Below, in pieces: positions 1,695-53,502 of a stretch of 64,000 nucleotides of DNA. Numbering within the stretch: position 1 is the first letter of the stretch; the number at the start of each line of letters is the position of its first letter. The stretch comes from Granulicella sp. GTDB lineage: Bacteria > Acidobacteriota > Terriglobia > Terriglobales > Acidobacteriaceae. Location: contig DAHWNL010000051.1 of the NCBI GenBank assembly GCA_027339965.1, forward strand, positions 1-64,000, written 5' to 3'. A model generated the notes under the pieces. It did not search any database. It saw only the letters and a program-made list of their open reading frames with translations, and was not told the DNA's origin. The position numbers and the translations under genes were made by a program.

Positions 1695-2554
1695 TGAAGC
1701 CCAGCCGCGCCGCAGTGGAAGCGATCGTGCGCATGGCTCTGGAGGAGGACGCTCCGTGGGGGGATCTGACCTCGCAGACGCTGCTGCCGGCCACGGCAAC
1801 GGTGAGCGCCCGGCTGGCCGCGCGCGAGCCAGGGGTGCTCTGCGGCGAAGACCTGGTGGAGGCGGCGTTTCGGCTGACCGACGCCGCGGTGACGATTCGC
1901 TTTGAGCGGCACGACGGCGAAAGGTTTTCTGCCGGGGAGACGCTGGCTACGCTGCACGGCCCGGCGCGTGGCGTGCTGCAGGCCGAGCGGGTGGCGCTGA
2001 ACTTTGCCCAGAGGCTATGTGGCGTGGCCACGCTGACGGCGGCTTATGTGCGCCAGACGGAAGGGACGCGGGCGCGCATCACGGACACGCGCAAGACGAC
2101 TCCGGGGCTGCGCCTGTTGGAGCGCTACGCCGTCCGCTGCGGCGGCGGGCAGAACCACCGCTTCTCTCTGTCGGACGCGGTGATGGCCAAGGACAACCAC
2201 TTGGCCCTGCTGGCGACGGCGCTGCCGGAGGCTCTGCGCGCGGCGCGCGCGGCGCTGCCGCACACCACCGCCATCGAGGTGGAGATTGACCGGCTGGAGC
2301 AGCTTGCGGCGCTGGAGCCGCTGCTGGGCGCGGTGGTTCATACCGTTCTGCTGGACAACTTCCCGCTGGACGACCTGCGCGCCGCCGTGGAGCGCATTGC
2401 GGGCCGCGCCCTGACGGAGGCCAGCGGCGGCGTCACGCTGGAGAGCGTGGCGGCGATCGCCGCGACCGGGGTGGACATTGTCTCTGTGGGCGCGCTGACG
2501 CACAGCGCTCGCGCGCTGGATCTGGGGTTGGATATTGCGGTGGGCGCGGGCTGA
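1688..2554 (+). CDS. nadC: Nicotinate-nucleotide diphosphorylase (quinolinate phosphoribosyltransferase)
   Basis: DTRKTTPGLR, NHRFSLSD, KDNH, EVEID, LLDN, EASGG and SVGALTHS motifs; start may be 1694. Confidence 0.95.
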   Translation: MLMKPSRAAVEAIVRMALEEDAPWGDLTSQTLLPATATVSARLAAREPGVLCGEDLVEAAFRLTDAAVTIRFERHDGERFSAGETLATLHGPARGVLQAERVALNFAQRLCGVATLTAAYVRQTEGTRARITDTRKTTPGLRLLERYAVRCGGGQNHRFSLSDAVMAKDNHLALLATALPEALRAARAALPHTTAIEVEIDRLEQLAALEPLLGAVVHTVLLDNFPLDDLRAAVERIAGRALTEASGGVTLESVAAIAATGVDIVSVGALTHSARALDLGLDIAVGAG

Positions 2555-2837
2555 GGCTCTGCGTTCGGCCAGAAGGCAGGCGCGGGCTTGGCCGCAATCC
2601 GTGAAGACTGCGATACTAAAAACTGAAGGAAGATGAGTTTGAACGATCTTCCGATTGAGGAAAATTGAGCTTCAGCGGCCATCCGATTGAGGCAAATCGA
2701 GTTCGAAAGATCTTTCGATGGAGAGAACTCCGTTGCAGCGATCTCCAAGCGGAGCTTCTTTCGGTGGAACCGTTCTTCTCGGCCCCACTGATTCCTGCTG
2801 ATCCGCTTGCTGCAGACCTTGGTCCGGCTGGTTGGCG

Positions 2838-2992
2838 CTTTTGATCTGCTGAGCTTGGTTGTCGATTTGATCTGCTGAGCTTCCGTCTCTTGGGGCCGGC
2901 TGAGCTTGGCTTTTGTTGACTTGTGTCGTTTGATTTCCGTTGATGTGTTTGGTTTGATCTCTGTTGGCCTGCTTTGTTTGATTTCTGTTGAA
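2838..2992. repeat. Degenerate ~24-26-bp tandem repeats (TTTGATYT.. / CTGAGCTT units)
   Basis: TTTGATCTGCTGAGCTT twice, then TTTGATTTCCGTTGA, TTTGATCTCTGTTGG and TTTGATTTCTGTTGA about 24-25 bp apart. Confidence 0.7.
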
Positions 2993-3000
2993 GTTTCTAT

Positions 3001-4263
3001 ATGCCAATCGTCCGCGAAACTTTCGAACATACCCTGCGCAGCGCCCGGACCTCGGTCTCGTTTCGCGAGACGGCCAACCTGGCCTACGACAGTTTTCGCG
3101 CCAGCAAGGCCCGCTTTCTGCTGACCATGCTGGGCATGGTGATTGGCTCTGCCTCCATTGTGCTGGTGGCCACGGTGGGACTTACTGGCAAGCAATACGC
3201 CCTGGACACCATCTCCTCGCTTGGGCCCAACAAGGTGGAGATGCAGTACACGGGCGGCTTTGTGATGGGACCGGACAACATCTCCACTCCCGACTACATG
3301 ACGATCCAGGACATGCAGGCGGTGGACCAGCAGGTTCCGGGAATTCGCTACAGCTCTCCCATGCTGGAGTTTCACGACCGCATCGCGATCGGCAACGGCA
3401 TCAGCCGGGACGCCATGCTGCTGGGGGTGAGCCCGGAGTACAAGGATATACGCGGCCTGAAGATGAAGGCGGGGCGGTTCTTCGATCAGGAGGATGCGAT
3501 CAACCACGCCAAGGTGGCCGACATCGTCGGCGTCATGGCCTTGGAGTTGTACGGAAACTATCACGACGCCATCGGTCACACTATCTCCATCCACGGAATT
3601 CCCTTCACCATCATCAGGGTCTTTGTGGAGAGCATCGACACCTTTGGGCAGTCGGAGATCAACAACCACACCCTGCTGGTGCCTTATGAGGTGGCCCGCT
3701 ACTTTACCGGCAGCAACGATCTGAAAGAGATCTTCTTCGCCATGGAGAATCGCCAGGACGTGGAACCGGCCGCGAAGCGCATCACGGCCCTGATCGCCAG
3801 CCGGCATCGCCCCACCAGCGAGTACACAGCCCAGACCCTGACCGATGTGCTGAATACGATGCGGAACATCGCCAACATGCTGACCACGGTGCTGATTCTG
3901 GCCTCTGCGATCACGCTGATCGTCTCCGGGGTGGGCATTATGAACTCGATGCTGGCCAACGTGCAGGCGCGGATCAAGGAGATCGGCATCCGCAAGGCGC
4001 TGGGCGCAACCAGCCGCGAGATTCGGCTCCAGTTCCTCACCGAGGCCATCTTTCTTTCGCTCTCCGGCGGGCTGGTGGGCACCATTCTGGGCATCGCTCT
4101 TCCCATCAGCGTTGGCCTGTTCACGCCCTTCGCGGTTCCGGTCTCTTACTGGGCCGCGGTCATCTCGCTGGCCACTTCCGTGCTGGTGGGCGTCGTCTTT
4201 GGCACGCTGCCGGCCAACCGCGCCGCGATGCTGGATCCGGTGATCACGCTCAAGTACGAGTAA
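3001..4263 (+). CDS. ABC transporter permease, MacB/FtsX family
   Basis: LTMLGMVIG TM1, periplasmic domain, GVGIMNSML..RIKEIGIRKALGA, LDPVITLKYE end. Confidence 0.92.
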   Translation: MPIVRETFEHTLRSARTSVSFRETANLAYDSFRASKARFLLTMLGMVIGSASIVLVATVGLTGKQYALDTISSLGPNKVEMQYTGGFVMGPDNISTPDYMTIQDMQAVDQQVPGIRYSSPMLEFHDRIAIGNGISRDAMLLGVSPEYKDIRGLKMKAGRFFDQEDAINHAKVADIVGVMALELYGNYHDAIGHTISIHGIPFTIIRVFVESIDTFGQSEINNHTLLVPYEVARYFTGSNDLKEIFFAMENRQDVEPAAKRITALIASRHRPTSEYTAQTLTDVLNTMRNIANMLTTVLILASAITLIVSGVGIMNSMLANVQARIKEIGIRKALGATSREIRLQFLTEAIFLSLSGGLVGTILGIALPISVGLFTPFAVPVSYWAAVISLATSVLVGVVFGTLPANRAAMLDPVITLKYE

Positions 4264-4331
4264 AAGCCCGAAGCCGCGCGCCGCCGCGGGATTCTCCGCA
4301 TCACCATGGGGGGCAGGAATCAGGGCCGCCT

Positions 4332-5702
4332 CTATACTGCCCGCATCTGGACAGAGTCAAAGAGTCCGTTCAGCAGCGATTCGCGCTCATAGGCGCAGAA
4401 CTCTCCCACGGTTTCAATCGAGCCGGTCTCATACAGGTCGCGGGCCCGGCAGGCTCCGCCGCAGAGGTAACGCACGGCGCAGCGGGAGCACTTGCCCAGG
4501 GTGTCCACGTTGATGGAGCGCAGGCGGCGGAAGACCGCTGTGTGGGCATAGATCTCTTCCAGGGGCTGCCGGCGGATGTTGCCGGCGCGGAAGGAGTCGC
4601 CGTGGAGGAGCTGGCATGGGTAGACGTCGCCGGTTTCGCTGATGCTGATCTCGCGCTCCGCCATGGAGCAGCGCCGCACGCCGTGGCCACGCAGGCTGGC
4701 CAGGCGCTGGGGCAGATTGCCCATGGGCGCTACGCCGCCAGTCCGGGTCAGCGCTCGGTAGTACTCGATGCCGCTCAGGGCCGAGCGCTGCAAAGCGCTT
4801 CCCCTGCCCGCCTTGAAGAGCGGCTGGAGCGAGAGCCTGGACCCGTGCCGGGCCACCATGACATCAATCTCGCCGCGGTTCTCCCGGGTGACCGTCATCG
4901 CCACCGTGACCCGCGCTCCGTGTTCTTCGAGCAAGCGAACGGCGCGCTCGGCGCGGTTAAAGTTCCCGCTGCCGCGCGTGGCGGCGTGGGTCGGCTCGCA
5001 GCTCCCATCCAGGCTGATCTTCACTCGATCTGTCACCGCCGCAATCCGCGCCGCGTTTCGCTCGTCGATCAGGGTTCCGTTGGTCAGCAGATGCACTTGA
5101 TTGCCCGACGCTTTGACCTGCTCGGCAAAGTCCAGGGCGTGGGGATGGAGCAGAGGCTCGCCGCCGGAGAGAACGTACTCCACGGGCGAGGCCAGGCGAG
5201 CCACGCCGGCGGCGATCGCGTCCAAATCCTGGCGGGTGAGCATCTCCTCCGCCTGCGACGCCGCGGCGCTGCTCTGGGTATAGCAGTAGACGCAGCGCAG
5301 GTTGCAGCGCTGGGTCAGTTTGAGGTGAACAATACGCAGTGCAGCAGAGGACGGCGCTGTCCGCGCTGCCGGAGAGGGCAAGGGCAATCGCGCAAGGCCG
5401 TGGTTCTCGGACAGAGTTTGCCCAGCGGCCCCGGCATCGGCATCTTCGAGCACCTGCCGAGCCAAGGCTTCCGTGAACAAGACCGCAGCCGACTCCCACT
5501 GCGCCTCATCCCCCGGGCCGAGGATCTCCTCCATGGTGGAGCCGGCGCAACGCGAGAGCAGAATGGCGGCGTTTTCATTCACCACCATCCAGTCCGGCGC
5601 GGCGGGCTGCAGGAACAGATGCTGGCTGTCACGCTTGGCGTAGAAGACGCCGGGAGCCAACTTCAGCCGATGTTGCCGATGTTGCAACACAACCTCTAGC
5701 AT
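4332..5702 (-). CDS. Radical SAM/SPASM peptide maturase with N-terminal RRE (PqqD-like) region
   Basis: CNLRCVYC, SGGEP, LTNGT, ISLDG; SPASM C..GDVYPC..CSRCAVRYLCGGAC..C (7 Cys). The ~90-aa N-terminus has a strand-then-helix pattern like an RRE (inferred). Start could be GTG 5690 or TTG 5687. Confidence 0.88.
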   Translation of the reverse strand: MLEVVLQHRQHRLKLAPGVFYAKRDSQHLFLQPAAPDWMVVNENAAILLSRCAGSTMEEILGPGDEAQWESAAVLFTEALARQVLEDADAGAAGQTLSENHGLARLPLPSPAARTAPSSAALRIVHLKLTQRCNLRCVYCYTQSSAAASQAEEMLTRQDLDAIAAGVARLASPVEYVLSGGEPLLHPHALDFAEQVKASGNQVHLLTNGTLIDERNAARIAAVTDRVKISLDGSCEPTHAATRGSGNFNRAERAVRLLEEHGARVTVAMTVTRENRGEIDVMVARHGSRLSLQPLFKAGRGSALQRSALSGIEYYRALTRTGGVAPMGNLPQRLASLRGHGVRRCSMAEREISISETGDVYPCQLLHGDSFRAGNIRRQPLEEIYAHTAVFRRLRSINVDTLGKCSRCAVRYLCGGACRARDLYETGSIETVGEFCAYERESLLNGLFDSVQMRAV

Positions 5703-5807
5703 TTTCAGTGTTGATGGGTGGCCCGAAGAGGGCGTGCAGTGGCGTTTTCATTGGGGAAAACGCCCATAGAAGTCGAGGCTTTGGGTGCACCTGCACTGAA
5801 ACTGCTT
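5697..5807 (-). mobile_element. 111-bp MITE, copy 1
   Basis: Imperfect TIRs TAGCATTTTCAGTG / CACTGAAACTGCTT, internal GGCGTTTTC-N6-GAAAACGCC hairpin, near-identical to three other copies. Confidence 0.85.
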
Positions 5808-6319
5808 TAGCGCCCTGCGCACTCTCCGCCGCCACAACTGCCGTGGCCGGAGGCGTGCTTCCCTTCCCTGCCGCCGCAGCAGCCATGGCCGCCGCGGTGT
5901 TTCTGGTGGTCATGGCCGCCGCAGTCGCCGCCTGACCCGCAGTGTCCGTGTGCGGAGCCGGCATGTTGGCCTCCCTGGCCGCAGCAGCTATGGCTGGAGC
6001 CGTGCTTCTCTTCGCCTGCGCATCCGTGCCCGCTGCAGTCGGCGCCAGCCCCGCTGTGCCCCCGGGCGGGGCCGAGGCAGTCTTCTCCGGAGCCACACGC
6101 TCCACTTGCGCTGGCGCATTTTACTGCGCCAGTGCTCCCAGTGGCCTGGGCCGAGAACGGGGTGGAGGGCAAGTCTGGCGCCTGTCGGCCCATCCATATC
6201 CCCTGCTGCCGGGCCAGGGGCAAACGACGTAGCTGGCTCAACCCATCCGCGGCAGACCACAGCAGGGTCTGCCCATCAGCCAGGCGATTGTCGGCACTCG
6301 ACTCCATTGCATTCAACAT
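5807..6319 (-). CDS. Cys/His/Gly-rich protein, putative RiPP precursor or metal-binding peptide
   Basis: Strong SD (GAAGGAGAGG) before the ATG; 67-aa Cys-free N-terminus, then a region with 13 Cys and 13 His; directly upstream of and co-oriented with the rSAM-SPASM gene. Confidence 0.75.
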   Translation of the reverse strand: MLNAMESSADNRLADGQTLLWSAADGLSQLRRLPLARQQGIWMGRQAPDLPSTPFSAQATGSTGAVKCASASGACGSGEDCLGPARGHSGAGADCSGHGCAGEEKHGSSHSCCGQGGQHAGSAHGHCGSGGDCGGHDHQKHRGGHGCCGGREGKHASGHGSCGGGECAGR

Positions 6320-6557
6320 GACCTCTCCTTCGTAGCCGTCTTCCGCGGGAACTCCCCAGGGAGGGTCCGGCCGGCATTTCCACCTGTCCGCAGGACAGAC
6401 GCAACTCCCTTTTACTGTTTATGGGGCGCTCCGGTAGGTGATGGTCATCACAGCCCAGCGAGATCCGATTCAGCGCCGGCCGCCCACTGCGCGCGAAGGC
6501 AGCGCAGCCAGCCCAGGCACGCCGGGGTGGGGCGCGCGGCAGGGTCTGCGCGGACCG

Positions 6558-7325
6558 CTAGTTCAGCACCAGAAGTTCAGGTCCGTGATTGCGGACATTA
6601 CCCAGGGCGGAGCTGCACGGCTGGATGCATAGCTCCGGCGGCGCGGCGGACCGCAACAGATGCAGCGGGGTAGGTTGGGAGGGATCGCGATCCAGCCACT
6701 GCTCCCAGTCCTTCTCGGGGAGGATCAGCGGCATGCGTGAGTGGATGGCGGCCATGGCCGCATTGGCCTCGGTGGTGATCAGGGCGAAGCTCTGCAGCCA
6801 GCGATCCACCTCCTGCGGAGAACGCTTGGGCTCCTTCCATGCGTCCCACAGCCCGGCGATGGCCATCATGGCTCCGCCCGGCAAACTGACAGCGTAGGGC
6901 TGCCGCACCTTTCTGGCCGCGCGCTGGCGCGAGGGCGCAGGCGGGGAGGCGGAGACGTGAAGCGCTCCCAGAGATGGCGAGGCGGGCCTCTCTGACCACT
7001 CGTAAAAGCCGTCGGCCGGAATCAGACAGCGGCGGCGCTTGAAAGACTCTCGCCAGGTGGCCGAGGTGGTGAGCGACTCGGCCCGCGCATTGAAGGTGGA
7101 GATTTGTTTGAATTCCCGCAGGCTGGAGGCGAAGGAGGGAATCAAGCCCCAGCGCAGCAGCGCCAGCTCGCGTTCGCCAGTATCCGTGGCGAGGCGAATG
7201 ACAGGCTGAAAAGTGCTGGGAGCGATGTTGTAGTCCTCCACCAGCGGATCCGCAAAGACCTTGCCAGCGCGAAAACGCTCCGCGATCTCCTGTTTGTCGG
7301 ATCTGCGAAAGTAACGGCCACACAT
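6558..7325 (-). CDS. SOS response-associated peptidase (SRAP/YedK/HMCES family)
   Basis: N-terminal MCGRY, YNIAP, FNARAE, RRCLIPADGFYEW, HSRMP. Confidence 0.95.
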   Translation of the reverse strand: MCGRYFRRSDKQEIAERFRAGKVFADPLVEDYNIAPSTFQPVIRLATDTGERELALLRWGLIPSFASSLREFKQISTFNARAESLTTSATWRESFKRRRCLIPADGFYEWSERPASPSLGALHVSASPPAPSRQRAARKVRQPYAVSLPGGAMMAIAGLWDAWKEPKRSPQEVDRWLQSFALITTEANAAMAAIHSRMPLILPEKDWEQWLDRDPSQPTPLHLLRSAAPPELCIQPCSSALGNVRNHGPELLVLN

Positions 7326-7544: not shown

Positions 7545-8513
7545 TCAATGGGCATGGGCGTGATCCTGCCCGTCGGGCCCGTGATGATGATGGGAGTGAC
7601 CATCCACCTCCACGGCCTCCGGCGGCGAGCTGCAGCCGTCCAGCGTCTGGCAGGCGGAGACCTCCAACTGGATGGTGGTGTGGTGGATGCCGAAGTGATC
7701 CCGGATCTGGTGGTTGATCCGCTCGAGCACCGCCTCCGTCTCGGAGAGATGCATCTGCTCCACCTGCACATGGCAGGCCATGGCGTGGCTGTGCGAGGTC
7801 AGGCTCCAGATATGGAGGTCGTGCACGTTCACCACGCCCTGAATCTGCTGCACGGCACAACGAAGCTCGGCCATGTCCACGCTGCGCGGAGTGCCTTCGA
7901 GCAGAATCTGGAGCGTCTCACGCACGATGCTCCAACTGCTGGCCAGGATCATGAGAGCGATGAGCAGGCTCAAGAGCGGATCGATCCATTCGATTCCGGA
8001 GAAGCTGATCGCCAAACCGCCGGCGATGACTGCGGCGGTGGAGATGGTATCGCCGAGCATGTGGAGAAAGACGCTGCGAATGTTGACGTCCCCGGAAGAC
8101 TTCCACAGCATGGCGGCGATGAGTCCATTCATGAGCACGCCGGCTGCGGCCACGGTGGTCATGAAGTGGGGCTGAACAATGACCGGGTGAAAAAATCGGC
8201 GCAGAGCCTCGGCGGCGATCCAGAGAGAGAGCGCCATGAGCAGCAGGGCGTTGACAAAGCCGGCCAGCACGCCGGCCCGCTGATAGCCGAACGTTCGCTC
8301 GTCCGTGGCGGGCCGCGACTGTAGCCACACGGCGACAAAGCTTAGCGCCAGGGCCAGAGCGTCCGAGGCGTTATGGACCGTCTCCGAGATCAGGGCCAGG
8401 GAGTGAGCGCGCAGGCCGAAGAAGAGCGTAGCGGCCACGTAGAGAACCGTGAGCAGGAGCGATCCCTTGAGGATCTGCTGCATCTTCGCCCTGGAGCTGG
8501 GGATGGCTGCCAT
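7545..8513 (-). CDS. Cation diffusion facilitator (CzcD/ZitB-like) with His-rich C-terminal tail
   Basis: HNASD (TM2), HMLGD (TM5), TFGYQR, VHDLHIW, HTTIQLE, tail HSHHHHGPDGQDHAHAH. Confidence 0.93.
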   Translation of the reverse strand: MAAIPSSRAKMQQILKGSLLLTVLYVAATLFFGLRAHSLALISETVHNASDALALALSFVAVWLQSRPATDERTFGYQRAGVLAGFVNALLLMALSLWIAAEALRRFFHPVIVQPHFMTTVAAAGVLMNGLIAAMLWKSSGDVNIRSVFLHMLGDTISTAAVIAGGLAISFSGIEWIDPLLSLLIALMILASSWSIVRETLQILLEGTPRSVDMAELRCAVQQIQGVVNVHDLHIWSLTSHSHAMACHVQVEQMHLSETEAVLERINHQIRDHFGIHHTTIQLEVSACQTLDGCSSPPEAVEVDGHSHHHHGPDGQDHAHAH

Positions 8514-8537: not shown

Positions 8538-9779
8538 TCAGCTTCTCCAATGCAGCTCCACGGGCCCGCACAGCGGATGGTCTCCCTCCCCGGTCAGGCG
8601 GCGCTGCTTCAAGGCGAAGTACCACTTGGCCGGCAGGTCGGCGTCATCGATCAGCATCAGGCCCGGGTGGAAGCGCAGTCCGCGGGCTTGTTCCACCATC
8701 GTCCGCTGGTCCTGAGCAACAAACTTCGCGCCGAAGTAGCGAGCGATAGGGGTCACCAGAGGCAGGTGATAGGCGATATTCCAGGCGGCGATCACATCAA
8801 TGCGGCAGGAGGTGGGCGTGACGGGAGTCACCGTGGTCAACGAGGCGAACCAGCGCTCGCGCCCCTTGGCGTTAACCGCCCGGATGGTCTCATAGCGGCG
8901 GTTAGGCAGCACAAAATCGATGGTGGTGACCGGCTTGCCGAGCAGCTTGTAGGGAGCGCTGTTGGACGATGGCGCGTGAGCGCTCATGCGAAAGCCAGCG
9001 TTCCGGCCGCCATGTTCGCGATCTTCGATGGGCTCGAACCGCTTGGTCTTCTCATGGATGCTGGCCGCTCTGCGCCACCACCAGGCGCGATGCACAAACG
9101 GCCCATGCGCCGGATCCATCAGGCCGATGATGCCGTGATCGACGTTGCAGGGAAGGTCCGCCTGCAGATGCGCCGCGCGGTAGCGAGAAGAGAACTTCGG
9201 CAGCTCCGGTATTGGCGGCAGGTTGCGCAAAGCCGCTTGCGGCTGAGAGACCGGCTCCGACCCCGGCTCCGACTTTGACTTCGAGTCTGGCTCGTAGTCT
9301 GGGCTGGGCATCCGTCCGACGCCGGCGGAAGGGACGTAGACCCAGGCGTAGCCGTCTCTTTCCACCACGGGAAAGGCGTTGGCGTAGATCTTCTGGGGAA
9401 CCAGGTGATCGAACCTGGTCAGCGAAGGGATCTCCTCGCAGCGTCCGCTGCAGGGCTCAAACCTCCAGCCGTGATACTTGCACTGCACGCTTTCTCCATC
9501 GAACCATCCGGCGGAGAGTGGAATGCCGCGATGCGGGCAGAGATCGCGCAGGGCGAACAAGGCTCCATCCTGCTTTCTGCCCAGCAGCATGGGAATGCCC
9601 AGCAGCATGGTTAAGGCGGTGCTGCCGGGACGAAGGCGGCCGGAGCGCAGCGCCGGATACCAATCCCCGAAGACCATCTCCGCGGGCGGGCCGGCGGCAG
9701 CGGGCGCGGCAAGGATCTCCGCCGGGCAATCGCGCTCTGGGCTCAGGATGGGCCTCATCCGTGCGTGCTGTTTCGCCAT
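8538..9779 (-). CDS. Rieske 2Fe-2S non-heme iron oxygenase, alpha subunit
   Basis: CPHRG..CKYHGW Rieske motif, DPAHGPFVH mononuclear Fe motif; start moved to Met56 to avoid overlap with the divergent gene. Confidence 0.88.
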   Translation of the reverse strand: MAKQHARMRPILSPERDCPAEILAAPAAAGPPAEMVFGDWYPALRSGRLRPGSTALTMLLGIPMLLGRKQDGALFALRDLCPHRGIPLSAGWFDGESVQCKYHGWRFEPCSGRCEEIPSLTRFDHLVPQKIYANAFPVVERDGYAWVYVPSAGVGRMPSPDYEPDSKSKSEPGSEPVSQPQAALRNLPPIPELPKFSSRYRAAHLQADLPCNVDHGIIGLMDPAHGPFVHRAWWWRRAASIHEKTKRFEPIEDREHGGRNAGFRMSAHAPSSNSAPYKLLGKPVTTIDFVLPNRRYETIRAVNAKGRERWFASLTTVTPVTPTSCRIDVIAAWNIAYHLPLVTPIARYFGAKFVAQDQRTMVEQARGLRFHPGLMLIDDADLPAKWYFALKQRRLTGEGDHPLCGPVELHWRS

Positions 9780-9853
9780 GGCTCTTTCCCTTTGTGGCCA
9801 GTTTAGCCGAGTTCGGCGCTCCTGCTGCCTCCCGGACGCATACACTTGTCCCA

Positions 9854-12043
9854 ATGCCTGCAGTGCGTCCATCCCAACCGCCTGTCCCCCGGGCGATGCG
9901 TCAAGCTCCCGCAGGGGAGACCTCTCCTGCGCCGCGCCGGACACGGAGCGTGCTTCTGCTGTGGCTGGTCTGGGTGGTGTTTTACGCCAGCTTCACCCTA
10001 TTGACCCCCGCGCTGCTGGACGACGCCGACAGCGTACACGCGGAGGTGGCCCGGGAGATGCTGCTGCGCCGCGATCCGGTCACGCTCTATGCCAACGGCA
10101 TCCGCTACCTGGAGAAGGCTCCGCTGCTTTACTGGTCGATGGCCGGCGCCATGCGGGTCTTCCAGTGGTGCGGGGCCGGCTCGGCCAAGGCTCTGACGGT
10201 GGCGGCGCGGATTCCGCTGTCCCTGACGGTGCTGGCCCTGGCCCTGCTGGCCGAGGACTTTGCGCGCCGTCTGTTCCGCTCCCGGGACCGTCCAAAGGCC
10301 GGTCCGCGGGCAGGCCTGTACGCCGGGCTGATACTGCTCTCCAGCTTTGGCCTGTTTCTGTTCACCCGCATCACCATTCCAGACGCCGGCGTCTGTCTGT
10401 TTACCACGCTGGCCATGTACTTCTTCTGGCGTACCGAGGAGCTGGCCGCAGCCCCAGCCACACAGCGTCAGGAGCCCCGGAGTCTGGGCAGGGTTCACCC
10501 CGGTTTGAGCTGGATTCGTTACGTCCCGGCCCATCACCCGGAGGGCCGACTGCGGCTCTACTGCGGAGGGTTCGCCCTCGCCTGCGCCCTGAACGTGCTC
10601 ACCAAGGGGCTGATCGGAGTGGTCTTCCCGGTGGCGACCGTGGTCTTGTATCTTCTGCTGACCCGCGGCGCCGGGGCGGCACTGCGCCGGCTGCGGGAGC
10701 TGCATCCATGGTCCAGCCTGGAGCTGTTTCTGCTGATCGCCGCGCCCTGGCACATCCTGGCCGGGCTGGCCAATCCCGGCGAAGGACATCCCGCGCCGTT
10801 TCGCTTCCGCTTTGCTTACCACTTTCCGTTTTCGCTGGGCCATTGGATCGTCCCGTTGCCCACCGACGGCAACGTGCGCGGATGGTTCTGGTTTTACTTC
10901 ATGAACGAGCATGTTCTGCGCTACCTGAACCTGCGCGTTCCGCACGACTATGACACCTCGCCGCTATGGCTGTTCTGGGGACTGTGCCTGATCTGGCTGA
11001 TGCCGTGGTCAGCGTTCCTGTTCAAGGCCACGGCCTGGGCCGCGCCGCTGCTGGGCAGCTCGGAACAGGCTGCGCAGTACCGCAACCGGCTGCGCAGCCA
11101 CCAGCTCCCCTTGAAGCGCCGCGGAGCCTTGCTGCTGCTGGTGTGGGCGGCGTTTGTGCTGCTCTTCTTTGCCTTCTCCACCCGCCAGGAGTACTACGTT
11201 CTGCCCGCGCTACCGGCGCTGGCGATACTGATCGCGGGCTGGCTGGCGCAACCCAGCGAGGCCATAGGAAGGGCGGCACAGCGCGCCACAGCCGTTCTGC
11301 TGGCTCTGGGCGGAGTGTTTGCCGCAGCCAGCCTGATTTTTCTGCTGCGGACCAAGCCGCCCACTCCGGGCGCCGACCTGGCTACGCTGCTCACCCAGCA
11401 CCCGGCGGACTACGCCCTGAGCATGGGCCATCTTCTGGACCTGGATCTGGCCGCGCTGAGCCTGTTCCGCCTGCCCCTGGCGCTGGCCGCGCTCAGCCTG
11501 GCGCTGGGGCCGTTGCTTTCATTGCTTCTGCGGTACCGCTCGCGCCCCCATGCAGCCACTCTGGCTCTGGCCGGCGGAGCCCTGGGATTCCTGCTGGCGG
11601 CGCACCTTGGCCTGCAGACCTTTGCCCCGGTGCTTACCTCCGCGCAGCTCGCTGAGGCCATCGCCCCGCAGGTGCGGCCCCAGGACCTGATCGTGATCCA
11701 CGGCGAATATGAGAGTGGAAGCACGCTGGGGTTCTATCTGCAGCGCCCCGGCAGCTATGCGGCTCCCGCTGGCTCCGTGGCGCCGGCCGGCAACTTCATC
11801 CACATTCTGGAAGGACGAAGCTCGAATCTCTGGTATGGAAGCTTCTTCCGCGACGCTCCGCCGATCTTCGAGACGCCGGCCTCGATCGCAGCCAAGTGGA
11901 ATGGGGCGCAGCGCATCTTCCTGTGGCAGTCCCTGACCGACCCTCCCAACCAACTCCCCCCGCTGCCCGGGCCGGTCTACGTGCTGGCCAGATCCGGCGG
12001 CAAGGAGATTGTGAGCAACAAGGGGCCAGGCTGGAGAGAGTAG
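9854..12043 (+). CDS. ArnT/PMT-family (GT-C) polytopic glycosyltransferase
   Basis: VAREML, YLEKAPLLYW, LTKGLIG, APWH, YYVLPALP; TACACT 7 nt before the ATG at 9854. Confidence 0.88.
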   Translation: MPAVRPSQPPVPRAMRQAPAGETSPAPRRTRSVLLLWLVWVVFYASFTLLTPALLDDADSVHAEVAREMLLRRDPVTLYANGIRYLEKAPLLYWSMAGAMRVFQWCGAGSAKALTVAARIPLSLTVLALALLAEDFARRLFRSRDRPKAGPRAGLYAGLILLSSFGLFLFTRITIPDAGVCLFTTLAMYFFWRTEELAAAPATQRQEPRSLGRVHPGLSWIRYVPAHHPEGRLRLYCGGFALACALNVLTKGLIGVVFPVATVVLYLLLTRGAGAALRRLRELHPWSSLELFLLIAAPWHILAGLANPGEGHPAPFRFRFAYHFPFSLGHWIVPLPTDGNVRGWFWFYFMNEHVLRYLNLRVPHDYDTSPLWLFWGLCLIWLMPWSAFLFKATAWAAPLLGSSEQAAQYRNRLRSHQLPLKRRGALLLLVWAAFVLLFFAFSTRQEYYVLPALPALAILIAGWLAQPSEAIGRAAQRATAVLLALGGVFAAASLIFLLRTKPPTPGADLATLLTQHPADYALSMGHLLDLDLAALSLFRLPLALAALSLALGPLLSLLLRYRSRPHAATLALAGGALGFLLAAHLGLQTFAPVLTSAQLAEAIAPQVRPQDLIVIHGEYESGSTLGFYLQRPGSYAAPAGSVAPAGNFIHILEGRSSNLWYGSFFRDAPPIFETPASIAAKWNGAQRIFLWQSLTDPPNQLPPLPGPVYVLARSGGKEIVSNKGPGWRE

Positions 12044-45423: not shown

Positions 45424-45468
45424 ACTTGCCTCCACTCCCCAAAATTAGTTGGCGCGAAACACCTCGGC

Positions 45469-45484
45469 AGGTACTTTTGTCACT
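45469..45484. promoter_or_regulatory. Crp/Fnr-type box between divergent nnrS and rSAM genes
   Basis: AGTGAC-AAAA-GTACCT on the - strand; centre 41.5 bp from both 45435 and 45518. Confidence 0.55.
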
Positions 45485-45517
45485 GCGCAGCCGTATCGGC
45501 TGGGTTTTCATCATCCT

Positions 45518-46666
45518 ATGAACCCGCTGAATCACACCACGGACTTCAACCAGACCCCCTTTCTCGCCATCTGGGAGGTCACCCAGGCCTGTGACCTGGC
45601 CTGCGTCCACTGCCGCGCCTCAGCGCAGCCCGAGCGCCATCCGCTGGAGTTGAGCACCGAGGAGGGCAAGCGCGTGATTGACGAAATTGCCGCCATGAAG
45701 ACGCCGGTCTTCGTTCTCACCGGTGGAGATCCGCTCAAGCGCCCCGACCTTTTTGACCTGATCCAGCATGCCCAGACCGTGGGCGTCCGCGTCTCGCTCA
45801 CCCCCAGCGCCACCCCTCTGCTCACCCGGGAGATGGTGGTTCGCCTCCAGCAGGCCGGACTGGCGCGGCTGGCCGTCAGCCTGGATGGAGCCTGTGCCGC
45901 CACCCATGACGCCTTTCGCGGATTATCCGGCTCCTTTGTGCGCACCCTGGACGCCATCCACTGGGCCAATGAGATCGGCCTGCCGGTCCAGATCAACACC
46001 ACCTTCAGCCGGCGTAACCTCACGGAGATCAATGTCATCGTCGCTCTGTTGGAGAGCGTTAAGGTCACCCTGTGGAGTGTCTTCTTTCTGGTTCCCACCG
46101 GCCGTGGCAAACTCGCGGATCTGCTCGATGCCCAAGAGTTCGAGGCGATCTTCGCCAAGCTCTATCATCTGTCCAAGACTGCGAGCTTTGACATCAAAAC
46201 CACTGAGGCGCAGCATTACCGCCGCTACCTTCTGCAACAGCGGACAGCGCAGCGTCAGGCCGGCCGCGGCGCAGCGCCCGCCGCGGAGAAGATTGCTGAC
46301 TCCATCGGCCGCGCGCCACGCGGCCTGAATGACGGCAAGGGATTCGTCTTCATCTCCCACACCGGAGAGGTGTATCCCAGCGGCTTTCTGCCCCTGCGGG
46401 CCGGCAACGTCCGTCGCCAGAGCCTGGCCTCCATCTACCGCCACTCCCCGCTCTTCCAGAGCCTGCGCGATACATCCCGGCTGCAGGGAAAATGCGGAGC
46501 CTGCGAGTTCAAGGAGATCTGCGGCGGCTCCCGCTCCCGAGCCTTCGCGCTCACCGGAAGCCCGCTCGGGGAAGAGCCCTGCTGCTCCTACATACCCCGC
46601 GGGTACGTCCCCACGGAGCAGATCCAGGCCAGGCCCCAAGGCCTGCGCGTGCTGCAGGGAGCATGA
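45518..46666 (+). CDS. Radical SAM/SPASM protein, TIGR04053/AhbD-NirJ-like
   Basis: WEVTQACDLACVHCRA, TGGDP, GEVYPSGFLP, CGACEFKEICGGSRSR. Confidence 0.85.
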   Translation: MNPLNHTTDFNQTPFLAIWEVTQACDLACVHCRASAQPERHPLELSTEEGKRVIDEIAAMKTPVFVLTGGDPLKRPDLFDLIQHAQTVGVRVSLTPSATPLLTREMVVRLQQAGLARLAVSLDGACAATHDAFRGLSGSFVRTLDAIHWANEIGLPVQINTTFSRRNLTEINVIVALLESVKVTLWSVFFLVPTGRGKLADLLDAQEFEAIFAKLYHLSKTASFDIKTTEAQHYRRYLLQQRTAQRQAGRGAAPAAEKIADSIGRAPRGLNDGKGFVFISHTGEVYPSGFLPLRAGNVRRQSLASIYRHSPLFQSLRDTSRLQGKCGACEFKEICGGSRSRAFALTGSPLGEEPCCSYIPRGYVPTEQIQARPQGLRVLQGA

Positions 46667-47547: not shown

Positions 47548-47658
47548 TAACATTTTCAGTGTTGATGGGTACACCGGAGTGGGCGTGTAGTGGCGTTTTC
47601 ATTGGGGAAAACGCCCATAGAAGTCGAGGCATTGGGTACACCTCCACTGAAACTGCTT
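47548..47658 (-). mobile_element. 111-bp MITE, copy 2
   Basis: TA-flanked (47546-47, 47659-60); same TIRs and hairpin; forms the TAA stop of the 742-aa gene. Confidence 0.88.
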
Positions 47659-49886
47659 TAGCGAAAGACCACCTCGATCTGCTGCGGCGCTGCCGTGTTC
47701 TTGAAGCGAATGAGCAAAGTTCGGCCGTTGTACTCATAGGATGCTGGATCTAACGGTTTCCCCCCAAGATCGATCTCGCGCGCTGCCCGGGCGGAGAGGA
47801 TGCGAACGACTCCGTGCGTATCTTCGATTCCCTCAACCTGAAAAGTCAGTCTGTTCTTGCCTTCTCGTTCCAACGTGACTTTGGCAGATGCGGCCAGGAT
47901 CCGCGGCCGGGATGAGCGAAAGGAGTTCACGTCCAGCAACAGCGCTCTTTCCCCCGGTTGAATCGTAAAGTGGTCGCTCTCCGCCAGATTGTTGTCAAAT
48001 AGATTGATGAAGTCTCCTGCAACGGAAAGTGGCCGCAGCGGTTGGCTCTGCTGCTCCGAGCCTTCCGCATCCAGGCCTGCGGCAATTACATAGTGGCCGC
48101 GCCGCAGCACCAGAACATGAGTTTGGCAGAGCGGCAGGCCAATGACCTTGGCAACAGTCTGGAGCGAGTCGTACACCACCTCCTGCCCAGCCGGCAAGTA
48201 GGTAAGAGCCGCTGGATTCTTCGCTTCGTACAGAACAAACCCTCTGCCAACTGCGTGCAGTCCGCTGGATCCCGGCTTCAAACCGAGCTCTTGGAAAAGG
48301 AGATCGCACGGCGTCTGAACCTTTCCATCCTTATCTCTCCACCAGGCATGAATCTTGTCGTAGGGATCCTTGTCATCATCGAAGACAATCAGGGCTCCGC
48401 CGGAATGGACCCACGCAACCAGCGCGGTTTGCGAATCTGGGTCAGGCGGCTTTTGGCCGTCATAAGTTAACAGCAGCACCTTGTATCGACGCAGGGCTCC
48501 GACGGTCACCGATCCCGGGCGGACGCTCTCCATCTGCACCGGTTCAACGGGCATGCCGCGCATCAGCAACGGGAGGGCCAGGCCATAAAACTCACCCAGG
48601 GAAGGATCGGATGGGTCCGGCGAGGCCCGCTCAAACATCAACGTGTCGGAGACAAGAACGCCGATGCCTCTGTTACCGGCAGACTCCCAATGCGTCTCCG
48701 CTGCCGGCTGTTGCATCTCGGCCAAGGCGTGGAAGACGGTCTGCAACTCCGTTGCGTACGCCTCTGGAATTGGAATCTTCGCCGGATTGGGATTGGAAGG
48801 TGAAGGTTCCGTAGCCGGATACGCGAAGCCCTCCCCAAAGATTCGCTCCGGCCATGGAAGCACCTCATAGCGCGACACCGCGGGTTGAAGAAGTGACGCT
48901 ACAAGCGTGCTCTCCCAGTTTTTGCGGTAATCACTCCAGGAGTGGTGAGGATTGTCTTCGATCGGATCATCGAGATACCAAATCGGCTTCCCTGAAGAAC
49001 GCGCAATATTCTGGAGAACTCCGTACTCCAGAAATGCTGTTTCAAACGTCCGCTCTCGCAGTACGCCCTCGTAAACATTCGGAGTCCGGGCGGTTCCGGT
49101 CCACACCTGCGCAATATAGCCATCTGCGCCTACCTTGAGCAAGGAAGACTCCGGGCTGACGATATGCCACTGTGCGTAGTTGATCAGGGAGTGGGTTGCG
49201 ACGTAGCACGGAATTGAGCGATGGTGCTTGGCACCATAAGCCTTCACGGATTGAAAGATCTGGGCCAGCGTGCGGCGATAGAGATAGTACTTGAGCTGGG
49301 AGGCGCGATACTGCGCGTCGGGGGAGCTGTCCGGCGCCTGCCAGGCCTGATGATATTCATCCTGCCACTGATTCCGGAAGCTTGTACTCCATCCCGCGCG
49401 AGCCCAGAACTCGGGCTCTTCCAGATAAACAGCCTGTGCTCCCGCATCGAGAGCGGACTCAATCTCCTTGCTCAGATACAAGCCGTAGGACCGATTCGGA
49501 GAGATATAGGGAATATCGCGTCCCCCATGCAGGATCAGGTTGCCGTTCTTCTCTTGCTGAGTCTCGTTCCAATGCTGTTTCCCATCGAAGCTTCCATCGA
49601 GATAGGCGCGATACCTTCCCCAAGCGACTCCAGTCATCAAATCCACATGATAGCCATGCGCCTTCCAGGAACGGATGCGCTCCGCGGTCGTGCCATCAAC
49701 CCCATAAACCATCACGGTATCGGCATCGATGTTGATCCGGGGCGACCATGCTCGGCTCGTCTGAAAAATGAGACGGCCTTGAGGGGCTTCGATCGTCCTT
49801 GACGGCGTCTGAGATGCCGCAAGCAACGTCTGGCCAGGAGCGAGCGAAAGACAGAAGGCAACCAGGATCAATGTATGGATCTTCAT
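47658..49886 (-). CDS. Secreted hypothetical protein, possibly glycoside hydrolase-like
   Basis: Signal peptide, Trp/Tyr-rich N-terminal domain with YLEEPEFW, C-terminal 'YKVLLLTY..WVHSGGALIV' GATase1-like segment; function is inference. Confidence 0.7.
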   Translation of the reverse strand: MKIHTLILVAFCLSLAPGQTLLAASQTPSRTIEAPQGRLIFQTSRAWSPRINIDADTVMVYGVDGTTAERIRSWKAHGYHVDLMTGVAWGRYRAYLDGSFDGKQHWNETQQEKNGNLILHGGRDIPYISPNRSYGLYLSKEIESALDAGAQAVYLEEPEFWARAGWSTSFRNQWQDEYHQAWQAPDSSPDAQYRASQLKYYLYRRTLAQIFQSVKAYGAKHHRSIPCYVATHSLINYAQWHIVSPESSLLKVGADGYIAQVWTGTARTPNVYEGVLRERTFETAFLEYGVLQNIARSSGKPIWYLDDPIEDNPHHSWSDYRKNWESTLVASLLQPAVSRYEVLPWPERIFGEGFAYPATEPSPSNPNPAKIPIPEAYATELQTVFHALAEMQQPAAETHWESAGNRGIGVLVSDTLMFERASPDPSDPSLGEFYGLALPLLMRGMPVEPVQMESVRPGSVTVGALRRYKVLLLTYDGQKPPDPDSQTALVAWVHSGGALIVFDDDKDPYDKIHAWWRDKDGKVQTPCDLLFQELGLKPGSSGLHAVGRGFVLYEAKNPAALTYLPAGQEVVYDSLQTVAKVIGLPLCQTHVLVLRRGHYVIAAGLDAEGSEQQSQPLRPLSVAGDFINLFDNNLAESDHFTIQPGERALLLDVNSFRSSRPRILAASAKVTLEREGKNRLTFQVEGIEDTHGVVRILSARAAREIDLGGKPLDPASYEYNGRTLLIRFKNTAAPQQIEVVFR

Positions 49887-53160: not shown

Positions 53161-53391
53161 AGCCCGACCACCTCAATCGCTTTGCAGCACCCGCTTGCGA
53201 GCACGTTGCAACCGAGCCAAAGCAATGAGCGAGGCGCGGCACATGATGGAATGGCAAACGAAGCTACGGCATGGATAGTGTAGCTTCTTGGCCAGGAGTT
53301 TTGCTTTTCAACAAACGCTGAGATGCGCTCACAAGATTTCAGGATGCTTGCAGTCGATCGATCAAGGAGAAAGATCAACCCGCTCGCCCTA

Positions 53392-53502
53392 AAGCAGTTT
53401 CAGTGCAGGTGTACCCAATGCCTCGACTTCTATGGGCGTTTTCCCCAATGAAAACGCCACTGTAAGCCCTCTTCGGGACACCCATCAACACTGAAAATAC
53501 TA
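53392..53502 (+). mobile_element. 111-bp MITE, copy 3
   Basis: TA-flanked (53390-91, 53503-04); AAGCAGTTTCAGTG...CACTGAAAATACTA. Confidence 0.88.

Follow-up and report, generated by a model that had tools for sequence, protein, structure and literature searches.

We analyzed a stretch of 64,000 nucleotides from a Granulicella sp. genome (GenBank assembly GCA_027339965.1, contig DAHWNL010000051.1, positions 1 to 64,000), called the window below. Its minus strand carries a gene for a small protein rich in Cys, His and Gly, followed by a gene for a radical S-adenosylmethionine (SAM) enzyme. The two very probably form a genuine pair of precursor and maturase, and judged from sequence comparisons the cassette is part of a widespread family without a name in the Pfam and NCBIfam libraries searched.

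Precursor and maturase genes

The main features of the cassette are the following; RRE stands for RiPP recognition element, RiPPs being peptides that ribosomes make and that are modified after translation.

5807 to 6319, minus strand: precursor gene, 170 amino acids, stop codon included (open reading frame (ORF), Shine-Dalgarno (SD) sequence, orthologues, dN/dS, single copy)
6119 to 6319, minus strand: leader, residues 1-67, free of Cys and without twin arginine (by alignment homologous to the twin-arginine translocation (Tat) signal and recognition strand of relatives)
6182 to 6208, minus strand: putative leader recognition motif Q38-Q46, QQGIWMGRQ (conservation of G44, contacts in the co-fold)
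5810 to 6118, minus strand: core, residues 68-170 (lone Cys, then six Cys pairs with His/Gly-rich linkers)
4332 to 5702, minus strand: maturase gene, 456 amino acids from the ATG at 5702 (ORF, Pfam, NCBIfam, structure)
5442 to 5666, minus strand: RRE-like domain, residues 13-87, four strands and three helices (AlphaFold2, Foldseek match to CteB, leader interface)
5283 to 5306, minus strand: CX3CX2C radical SAM cluster motif, C133-C140 (invariant in 23 sequences)
4383 to 4670, minus strand: SPASM domain with seven Cys, residues 345-440 (Pfam, invariant Cys)

An earlier reading of the letters alone (the sequence-only reading) had singled out a 170-residue ORF with a strong SD sequence, a Cys-free N-terminus of 67 residues, and 13 Cys and 13 His in the remaining 103. 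This ORF was found as described at 5807-6319 on the minus strand, with AGGAG at 6329-6325, five bases 5' of the ATG. The first Cys is residue 68, and residues 68-170 also hold 33 Gly. Six pairs, each of the type C-x5-C, C-x4-C or CC, come after the solitary C68, with 11-13 residues as linker from one pair to the next; the gaps between consecutive cysteines are 6, 5, 13, 4, 11, 0, 13, 5, 13, 0, 13 and 4. Two pairs (C75-C81 and C127-C133) are C-x5-C-x-G units of the type that is canonical for the family, and four are variants. The His residues fall within residues 88-159, 12 of the 13 in linkers and H98 inside the pair C95-C100. Among the 262 stop-free frames of at least 103 residues in the window, this frame has the most Cys plus His per 103-residue stretch (26, including 13 Cys); the runner-up, a cation diffusion facilitator (CDF) transporter, reaches 21, including 4 Cys.

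The gene is single-copy in its own genome, and the ratio of non-synonymous to synonymous substitution rates (dN/dS) is 0.46, 0.38 and 0.33 in comparison with the related loci L021, L022 and L023, respectively. A direct protein search with the small ORF returned two homologues only, with gene calls of 284 and 241 residues. The ATG preceded by an SD sequence and a start reading M-L-N/T, the latter common to seven orthologues, favour the 170-residue start over these longer public gene calls. The precursor had no Pfam match even at E≤10 and no NCBIfam match at E≤0.01. Metallothioneins have a Cys content near 30%, in C-x-C and C-C clusters; membership was rejected, as no Pfam or NCBIfam model matched even at an E-value of 10 and Cys accounts for 13 of the 103 core residues.

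The enzyme matches Radical_SAM (PF04055, 5.8e-23) and SPASM (PF13186, 1.9e-9). A same-strand radical SAM enzyme with a seven-Cys SPASM domain had been claimed, and Pfam and the conserved cysteines agree with it: the cluster residues C133, C137 and C140 and the SPASM-region residues C345, C363, C405, C408, C414, C418 and C436 are all invariant among 23 homologues. SPASM domains of such maturases carry seven or eight Cys, which serve two auxiliary clusters. The AlphaFold2 model (pLDDT, for predicted local distance difference test, 79.7; predicted template modelling score 0.75) has three parts, an N-terminal domain at residues 13-87 (block pLDDT 83-92; strands at 13-41, helices at 43-81), a low-confidence linker at 92-118, and the radical SAM barrel with SPASM. 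The N-terminal extension, previously put at about 90 residues, is present and amounts to 121 residues with domain and linker together. Using Foldseek, the closest solved fold was CteB (5why_B, E 4.1e-19, TMq 0.67, 476 aligned columns that include the N-terminal domain), which was also the closest solved structure by sequence (5wgg, 2.5e-13). The anaerobic sulfatase maturase anSME (4k36_A, 9.6e-16; 3.3e-13 by sequence), TigE, SuiB, SkfB and ChlB followed. RREs are winged helices like PqqD, built from a three-stranded sheet and three helices. Of 23 family members, 7 have a match to PqqD, the Pfam RRE model (1.7e-5 at best); the window's copy is not among them. Together with the modelled N-terminal domain and its match to CteB, this bears out the RRE anticipated from the sequence, and an architecture of RRE, radical SAM and SPASM is supported by sequence and model.

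The top NCBIfam models for the enzyme are all peptide maturases, StsB (4.9e-52, residues 112-440), WgkB, MftC and PapB, and all matches are below the cut-offs. Membership was rejected for PapB (NF047865, 93.8 bits against a cut-off of 340), AlbA (NF012164, 72.5 against 850) and mycofactocin MftC (TIGR03962, 130 against 265), as well as for StsB (see below).

The window contains a second radical SAM/SPASM gene (45449-46666, plus strand, 405 amino acids), whose product is 33-38% identical to the maturase over parts.

Conservation of the pair across phyla

Enzyme orthologues were found in 6 of 24 other genomes of the genus (63-88% identity) and in none of 16 genomes of the neighbouring family, 6 of them unpublished (best match 5.3e-23). 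In all six orthologous loci, a homologous small ORF lies directly upstream of the enzyme gene. The seven orthologues align with a conserved leader that lacks Cys and, in every sequence, a first unit GAVxCAxxxGxCGxGxxCxG, with cores of varying size (3 Cys in 72 residues, 6 core Cys in 90 residues, or 13 Cys in about 170 residues).

Among 8000 candidates scored, at least 503 enzyme homologues were found at E≤1e-30, every one generically named. For the survey of relatives we used one genome per species; 91 relatives were found and 80 loci kept, of which 74, with at least 250 bases available upstream of the enzyme gene, were evaluable. A precursor was counted if an upstream ORF on the same strand ended near the enzyme start, contained C-x5-C-x-G once or more and had a Gly content of 18% or above. 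Such an ORF was present in 67 of the 74 loci; of 6112 other ORFs from these loci, 3 qualified. The sequence-only reading had asked whether a Cys/His-rich ORF with a conserved leader is regularly found upstream of homologous enzymes; for a Cys-repeat ORF, the survey answers in the affirmative. Of the seven loci that failed, L021 and L068 possess the ORF, with a longer ORF call that dilutes the Gly share; L064 and L083 have barely 300 bases upstream, and L094, L097 and L100 are partial or distant matches.

According to the annotation of the sequence records, the loci belong to Acidobacteriota, Bacteroidales, Selenomonadaceae, Phascolarctobacterium, Chlorobiaceae, Chthoniobacterales, Aliarcobacter, Burkholderiales and Treponema, with many close kin, chiefly rumen Bacteroidales. 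When ORFs of at least 80 residues from 87 loci were clustered, sharing across phyla was limited to the enzyme and the precursor, the genes for SRAP, a MacB-like permease and NadC being local synteny of one Acidobacteriaceae branch. The enzyme was found at E≤1e-80 in none of 400 other Acidobacteriota genomes (an even draw, four candidates scored per genome), so that the cassette appears to be rare and patchy in its own phylum.

Precursors of the family carry 2 to 38 Cys in 2 to 19 units, a canonical example being C-G-S-S-Y-[DENS]-C-[AS]-G-G-G-G-K. Invariant side chains of the units are limited to the two Cys and the glycines, and the second Cys mostly has D, N, E or S in front of it. The sequence-only reading had expected a Cys/His-rich partner throughout; the Cys-repeat partner is indeed kept family-wide, whereas richness in His is limited to the window and its closest relatives, and other members have Gly linkers.

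The repeat part of ten diverse precursors had no match to a Pfam or NCBIfam model at E≤1, and in the ESM Atlas a canonical member falls in an 87-protein cluster labelled hypothetical. The full-text literature searched (subscription-only papers and supplements lie outside it) holds no description of a Gly/Cys-repeat precursor with such a maturase, in keeping with the earlier remark that the family was not a recognized one; a prior mention cannot be excluded. A survey of Bacteroidales RiPPs covers, in its accessible part, other radical SAM clusters (PMC10352776).

Some loci show variations of the arrangement. Two tandem genes for 74-residue precursors precede the enzyme gene in L082 (3444-3941, Phascolarctobacterium) and L089 (1330-1827, Clostridium). 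The largest precursor (L085, 2970-3995) has 341 residues as called, 38 Cys and 19 units, with a non-repeat spacer mid-way. In L094 (4001-5302, Acidobacteriaceae), the best segment is 66% identical to the window's enzyme, the overall score is weak (4e-104) and a precursor ORF is not recognizable upstream; this gene may be in decay. Outside Acidobacteriota, 8 loci have a gene for an ABC transporter 3' of the enzyme gene on the same strand (for example L048, 5271-6740).

Modelled docking of the leader on the RRE

The enzyme (23-row alignment) was co-folded with precursor residues 1-95 (7-row alignment), with three controls. The interface score ipSAE was 0.80 (0.78, 0.80 and 0.80 in the runs) versus 0.00 in the best control; that mark is reached by 116 of 157 solved complexes and by 2 of 215 mismatched pairs. 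For the partner, pLDDT was 51 or higher, and the runs had at least 56% of contacts in common. Leader residues 16-62 contact enzyme residues 15-78, with the lowest error for I41-W42-M43-G44 against V40-L48 and the last residues of the enzyme. V40-L48 belongs to the most conserved stretch of the RRE (WxVVNxNxAxLL). The model supports, rather than demonstrates, an RRE that holds a strand at the end of the leader. As complexes of RREs with leaders have already been solved, the result may partly reflect likeness to known structures.

Tat signals in relatives and their loss in the window's lineage

The N-terminus of the usual relative is a twin-arginine signal (general motif S/T-R-R-x-F-L-K, here for example SRRDFLKKL) followed by a hydrophobic stretch. 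The motif RRx[FL][LIVMF] is present in 47 of the 67 loci with precursor, and at E≤0.01 TIGR01409 is found in 20 of 30 precursors of the Bacteroidales type (26.9 bits for L091, against a cut-off of 16.7). In an alignment of 16 leaders, the Tat-type Acidobacteriaceae read ESRRKFLRTALVSAGA...G.GV.IGK and the window ESSADNRLADGQTLLWSAADG...QQGIWMGR; the leaders are homologous. In the window the twin-arginine column is substituted, and neither TIGR01409 nor another NCBIfam model matches at E≤0.01. G44, in a strand of the type hydrophobic-x-hydrophobic-Gly, is nearly invariant across phyla (at least 90% of the 16 leaders). In Tat-type relatives, the signal peptide ends with the corresponding strand (LFFGAK or GVRIGK).

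In a FastTree phylogeny of 74 enzymes (midpoint-rooted, support values not printed), the Acidobacteriaceae are one clade with a Tat-type branch and a branch without twin arginine, and the His-rich forms (window, L021, L022, L023) are nested within the latter. Seven short matches were dropped from the tree, as were L002-L007, because their small ORFs do not differ from those of L022, L023, L033, L036, L029 and L025. The forms of the window's subclade printed or tallied have 10-13 His in the precursor, those elsewhere at most 4. Since the branch lacks the twin arginine, the His-rich forms are nested within it and His counts elsewhere are low, the sequences indicate that the export motif was lost and His-rich linkers were gained as derived traits of the window's lineage.

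As this lineage is without twin arginine, the window's product is probably intracellular. The ORF list and Pfam reveal no protease, immunity gene or co-oriented exporter in the window, in line with the earlier statement for protease and exporter. The lack of an exporter gene fits with the finding that in most relatives the precursor brings its own Tat export signal.

A repeat element between the two genes

The following feature separates precursor stop and enzyme start.

5697 to 5812, no strand assigned: interspersed repeat of about 116 bases with inverted ends (metagenome depth, genome copies, hairpin)

The enzyme gene was expected to follow the precursor gene directly. It does lie downstream on the same strand, with an intergenic gap of 104 bases that is itself a copy of this repeat. 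In metagenome contigs the depth is 200-1600 at 5697-5812 and 5-12 in the flanks, and loose ends are seen at either side. At least 40 scored copies with 86-96% identity are present in the own 3.8-Mb genome, two more of them in the window (53386-53502 and 47548-47663). The repeat folds as a long hairpin (-37.3 kcal/mol, z -2.6), and an Rfam search of 4200-6700 at E≤1, repeat included, gave no match. Judged from its sequence, it looks like a miniature inverted-repeat transposable element or a repetitive extragenic palindrome. It is present at this site in the window and L021 and missing in L002 and L003, where the enzyme starts with GTG four bases after the precursor stop. The start common to relatives is the GTG at 5690-5688, and the repeat provides the in-frame ATG at 5702 for the window's enzyme.

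Neighbouring genes, habitat and expression

7545 to 8513, minus strand: ZitB-like CDF with His-rich C-terminus, context only (Cation_efflux 1.6e-38; TIGR01297 257.8 bits)

The CDF gene is located two genes upstream of the cassette on the same strand, and its product ends in the His-rich tail EVDGHSHHHHGPDGQDHAHAH. A CDF gene beside the cassette was seen only in the window and L023, i.e. in both His-rich loci that are long enough, and in none of seven short-form loci with SRAP. A link between CDF and cassette is speculative. A Rieske-domain gene (8538-9944) and the CDF gene adjoin the cassette only in the His-rich lineage.

With at least half of its sampled words, the DNA stretch was found in 19 runs from 8 studies, ten of them labelled sediment, mine drainage, wastewater or plain metagenome. 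RNA cover is none outside 5944-6141, which is uninformative for contig-level data. In 4100-6700, two terminator-like sites were found, without excess over shuffled sequences.

Relation to characterized systems

That radical SAM/SPASM enzymes cross-link Cys-rich peptides is already known. By analogy, the cassette would work like the CteB, QhpD, PapB and CrpC systems, yet it is outside all named families tested. CteB with CteA, the maturase and substrate of a ranthipeptide of the SCIFF type (six cysteines in forty-five residues) from Clostridium thermocellum (PDB 5WGG, 5WHY), has the same layout of RRE, radical SAM and seven-Cys SPASM domains, with a Cys-rich substrate gene adjacent. It shares only 16-18% identity with the window's enzyme, and the L091 enzyme scores 95.9 bits with the SCIFF maturase model, whose cut-off is 425. 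SCIFF precursors have about 45 residues and six Cys, and are not known to have repeats, a Tat signal or His. In QhpD/QhpC and PapB/PapA, a SPASM enzyme installs several Cys-to-Asp/Glu thioethers in a small Cys-rich protein or a repeat peptide. The PapB spacing is C-x3-D, versus C-x4-[DNES]-C in the window's family. The model of StsB-family sactipeptide maturases (NF045574) is the best-scoring curated model for the window's enzyme, yet with 177.3 bits against a cut-off of 625 the enzyme is not a member.

For CrpC and CrpA of Methanococcus voltae, the accessible part of a 2026 report, the first of such action on protein-sized repeat substrates, describes an RRE-SPASM enzyme that forms ranthionine cross-links in a protein-sized substrate with a leader-like N-terminal region and, in its C-terminal part, ten copies of a 17-residue motif with C-x-x-Q/D (PMC13692751). 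The window's pair is similar in combining an RRE-SPASM enzyme, a leader-like N-terminus and a repeated Cys motif. The same part of the report describes neither a Tat signal nor His-rich linkers for CrpA (PMC13692751). CrpC is archaeal and belongs to TIGR04463; the window's enzyme matches 86 NCBIfam families, and TIGR04463 is not among the best 25 of them.

CXXX-repeat radical SAM targets (PF27846) are the nearest named ESM Atlas cluster to the canonical precursor (0.84), a lead only. They are likewise periodic Cys repeat peptides beside a radical SAM enzyme, with a Cys period of 4, whereas in the window's family it alternates between 6 and at least 7. Membership was rejected because the ten precursors mentioned above had no match, in a Pfam copy that may predate PF27846. 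Bufferins have a Sec signal and thiooxazole chemistry. Their enzymes are of the MNIO class (oxidative enzymes that depend on multinuclear non-heme iron), in contrast to the radical SAM enzymes here. They can still be likened to the window's family in having protein-like precursors, an export signal as leader and modified Cys; the accessible part of the report describes them as RiPP metallophores that protect under metal stress (PMC11626156). Compared with the CteB, QhpD, PapB and CrpC systems, the family has its own repeat unit, a Tat signal as leader in most members and protein-sized cores, and the window's lineage is distinguished by the lack of the twin arginine and by His-rich linkers.

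Proposed function and alternatives

We consider it likely that the leader would be docked on the RRE and the core Cys cross-linked, to give a probably cytoplasmic and perhaps metal-binding product. The cassette would make a post-translationally cross-linked protein from a 67-residue leader and a core of six Cys pairs; the N-terminal RRE of the enzyme would grip the leader through the conserved strand I41-W42-M43-G44, and the radical SAM cluster and two SPASM clusters would then modify the Cys pairs. The likeliest result would be intramolecular thioether bridges of the sactionine or ranthionine type, one or two per repeat unit; in sactipeptides and ranthipeptides, the Cys sulfur is bonded to an alpha, beta or gamma carbon. 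A usual family member, with 2 to 19 C-x5-C and Gly-linker units, would be modified in the cytoplasm and then exported by Tat, whereas the window's product would stay in the cell and might bind metal ions.

For thioether chemistry as such we see a slightly better than even chance, by analogy. It is favoured because nothing but Cys and Gly is invariant in the units, and because the second Cys is mostly preceded by D, N, E or S, the acceptor types of the thioether enzymes QhpD, PapB and NxxcB. CteB forms thioethers. It is also favoured because CrpC, with CteB one of the nearest characterized enzymes, makes such bonds according to the accessible part of its report (PMC13692751). A metal-binding role of the window's product, called metallothionein-like in the sequence-only reading, is a tentative suggestion, hinted at by the His-rich linkers, the neighbouring CDF gene and the sediment, mine-drainage and wastewater metagenomes.

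Several observations weigh against this interpretation. The window's own N-terminal domain (enzyme residues 1-125) has no match to PqqD or any other Pfam model at E≤10, and the enzyme scores under the curated cut-off of every named maturase family. AlphaFold2 gave no usable fold for a canonical precursor of the L091 type (30-sequence alignment, mean pLDDT 43.8), and a cross-braced solenoid of such units would be speculative. The four-base coupling of L002 and L003 is abolished by the repeat, which could reduce expression of the enzyme. A scan for sigma-70-like promoters in 4100-6700 returned 0 sites, and the sole RNA evidence is one contig of 198 bases (5944-6141, in the precursor ORF, one mismatch) from one metatranscriptome, which could be of DNA origin. 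With regard to metals, the CDF link is confined to one lineage and counts as one evolutionary event, three His-rich loci being too short to judge, and metal binding by thiolates is disfavoured because thioethers would consume the thiols.

Free thiols would fit metal binding better, which speaks for a real pair with another radical SAM reaction, such as formylglycine formation, epimerization or C-C or C-O cross-linking, leaving Cys free for disulfides or metals. Anaerobic sulfatase maturase oxidizes Cys to formylglycine, and anSME is the second-best solved structure; moreover, the NCBIfam scores of AhbD, MftC and NirJ nearly equal those of thioether enzymes. Yet only the Cys pair and the glycines are invariant in the units, and the sulfatase motif (C/S-x-P/A-x-R) is not visible in the family cores printed. 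We regard such a reaction as unlikely, given also that characterized RRE-SPASM enzymes with Cys-rich substrates, CteB and CrpC, form thioethers (for CrpC, the accessible part of PMC13692751). It is improbable that the cassette is decaying in the window's lineage and its product no longer made or matured, even though the twin-arginine motif is lost, the spacing of units is irregular with C-x4-C and CC replacing C-x5-C, a mobile repeat parts the genes in the window and L021, and the 66% identical relative L094 lacks a recognizable precursor. Against decay, neither ORF is disrupted in the window, L021, L022 or L023, with the dN/dS values (0.33-0.46) given above, the cluster cysteines are conserved throughout, as is the RRE strand, the leader still docks in the co-fold, and the RNA-library contig covers part of the precursor.

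A secreted bioactive RiPP (a bacteriocin or signal), with the leader cleaved and export by distant machinery such as the convergent MacB-like permease, would be in keeping with the same-strand ABC transporter genes outside Acidobacteriota, the short precursors (60-90 residues) of Firmicutes-type loci (Selenomonadaceae, Phascolarctobacterium) and the MacB-like permease beside the cassette in 16 Acidobacteriaceae loci. We think this very improbable for the window, which lacks a protease, immunity gene and co-oriented exporter, whose permease is convergent and without adjacent ATPase, and whose 103-residue core is repetitive. Least credible of all is an ordinary unmodified His/Cys metal-binding protein with an incidental radical SAM neighbour. 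Composition and the neighbouring CDF gene would suit it, whereas the pairing in 67 of 74 loci across phyla, the conservation of a leader that has no Cys or His, a co-fold that passes with controls at 0.00, and the lack of a match to metallothionein or any other Pfam model even at an E-value of 10 are opposed to it.

The preferred reading, a cross-linked and in most members Tat-exported protein, can be extended to a Tat signal that doubles as RiPP leader, which would be of interest and which we think has a rather low probability. The RRE would clamp the end of the signal as an export proof-reader and release the precursor to Tat only after cross-linking. TorD and DmsD are parallel proof-readers for the export of redox enzymes. 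In the mine-drainage and sediment lineage, the twin arginine would have been lost and the Gly linkers stretched into His-rich ones, turning the product into a cytoplasmic, thioether-stapled metal buffer beside a CDF pump. The Gly/Cys repeat substrate with a Tat-signal leader offers a testable link of RiPP-type maturation and Tat export, in a large family that extends from soil Acidobacteriaceae to rumen Bacteroidales; with its His-rich linkers and lack of twin arginine, the window's variant is a candidate for a novel type of protein that buffers metals where these are abundant.

Other features near the cassette

The MacB-like permease gene adjoins the cassette in 16 Acidobacteriaceae loci, the window's copy being convergent and without an adjacent ATPase gene. 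In five genomes of the genus without the cassette, orthologues of the permease have no SRAP gene within 1.5 kb; as synteny differs there, this is uninformative on a clean presence/absence polymorphism of the cassette. Between nadC and the permease gene (2501-3000), the G+C content falls to 0.53, versus 0.6-0.73 in the flanks. One frame of this segment reads repeated TEIK-like words, suggesting short direct repeats.

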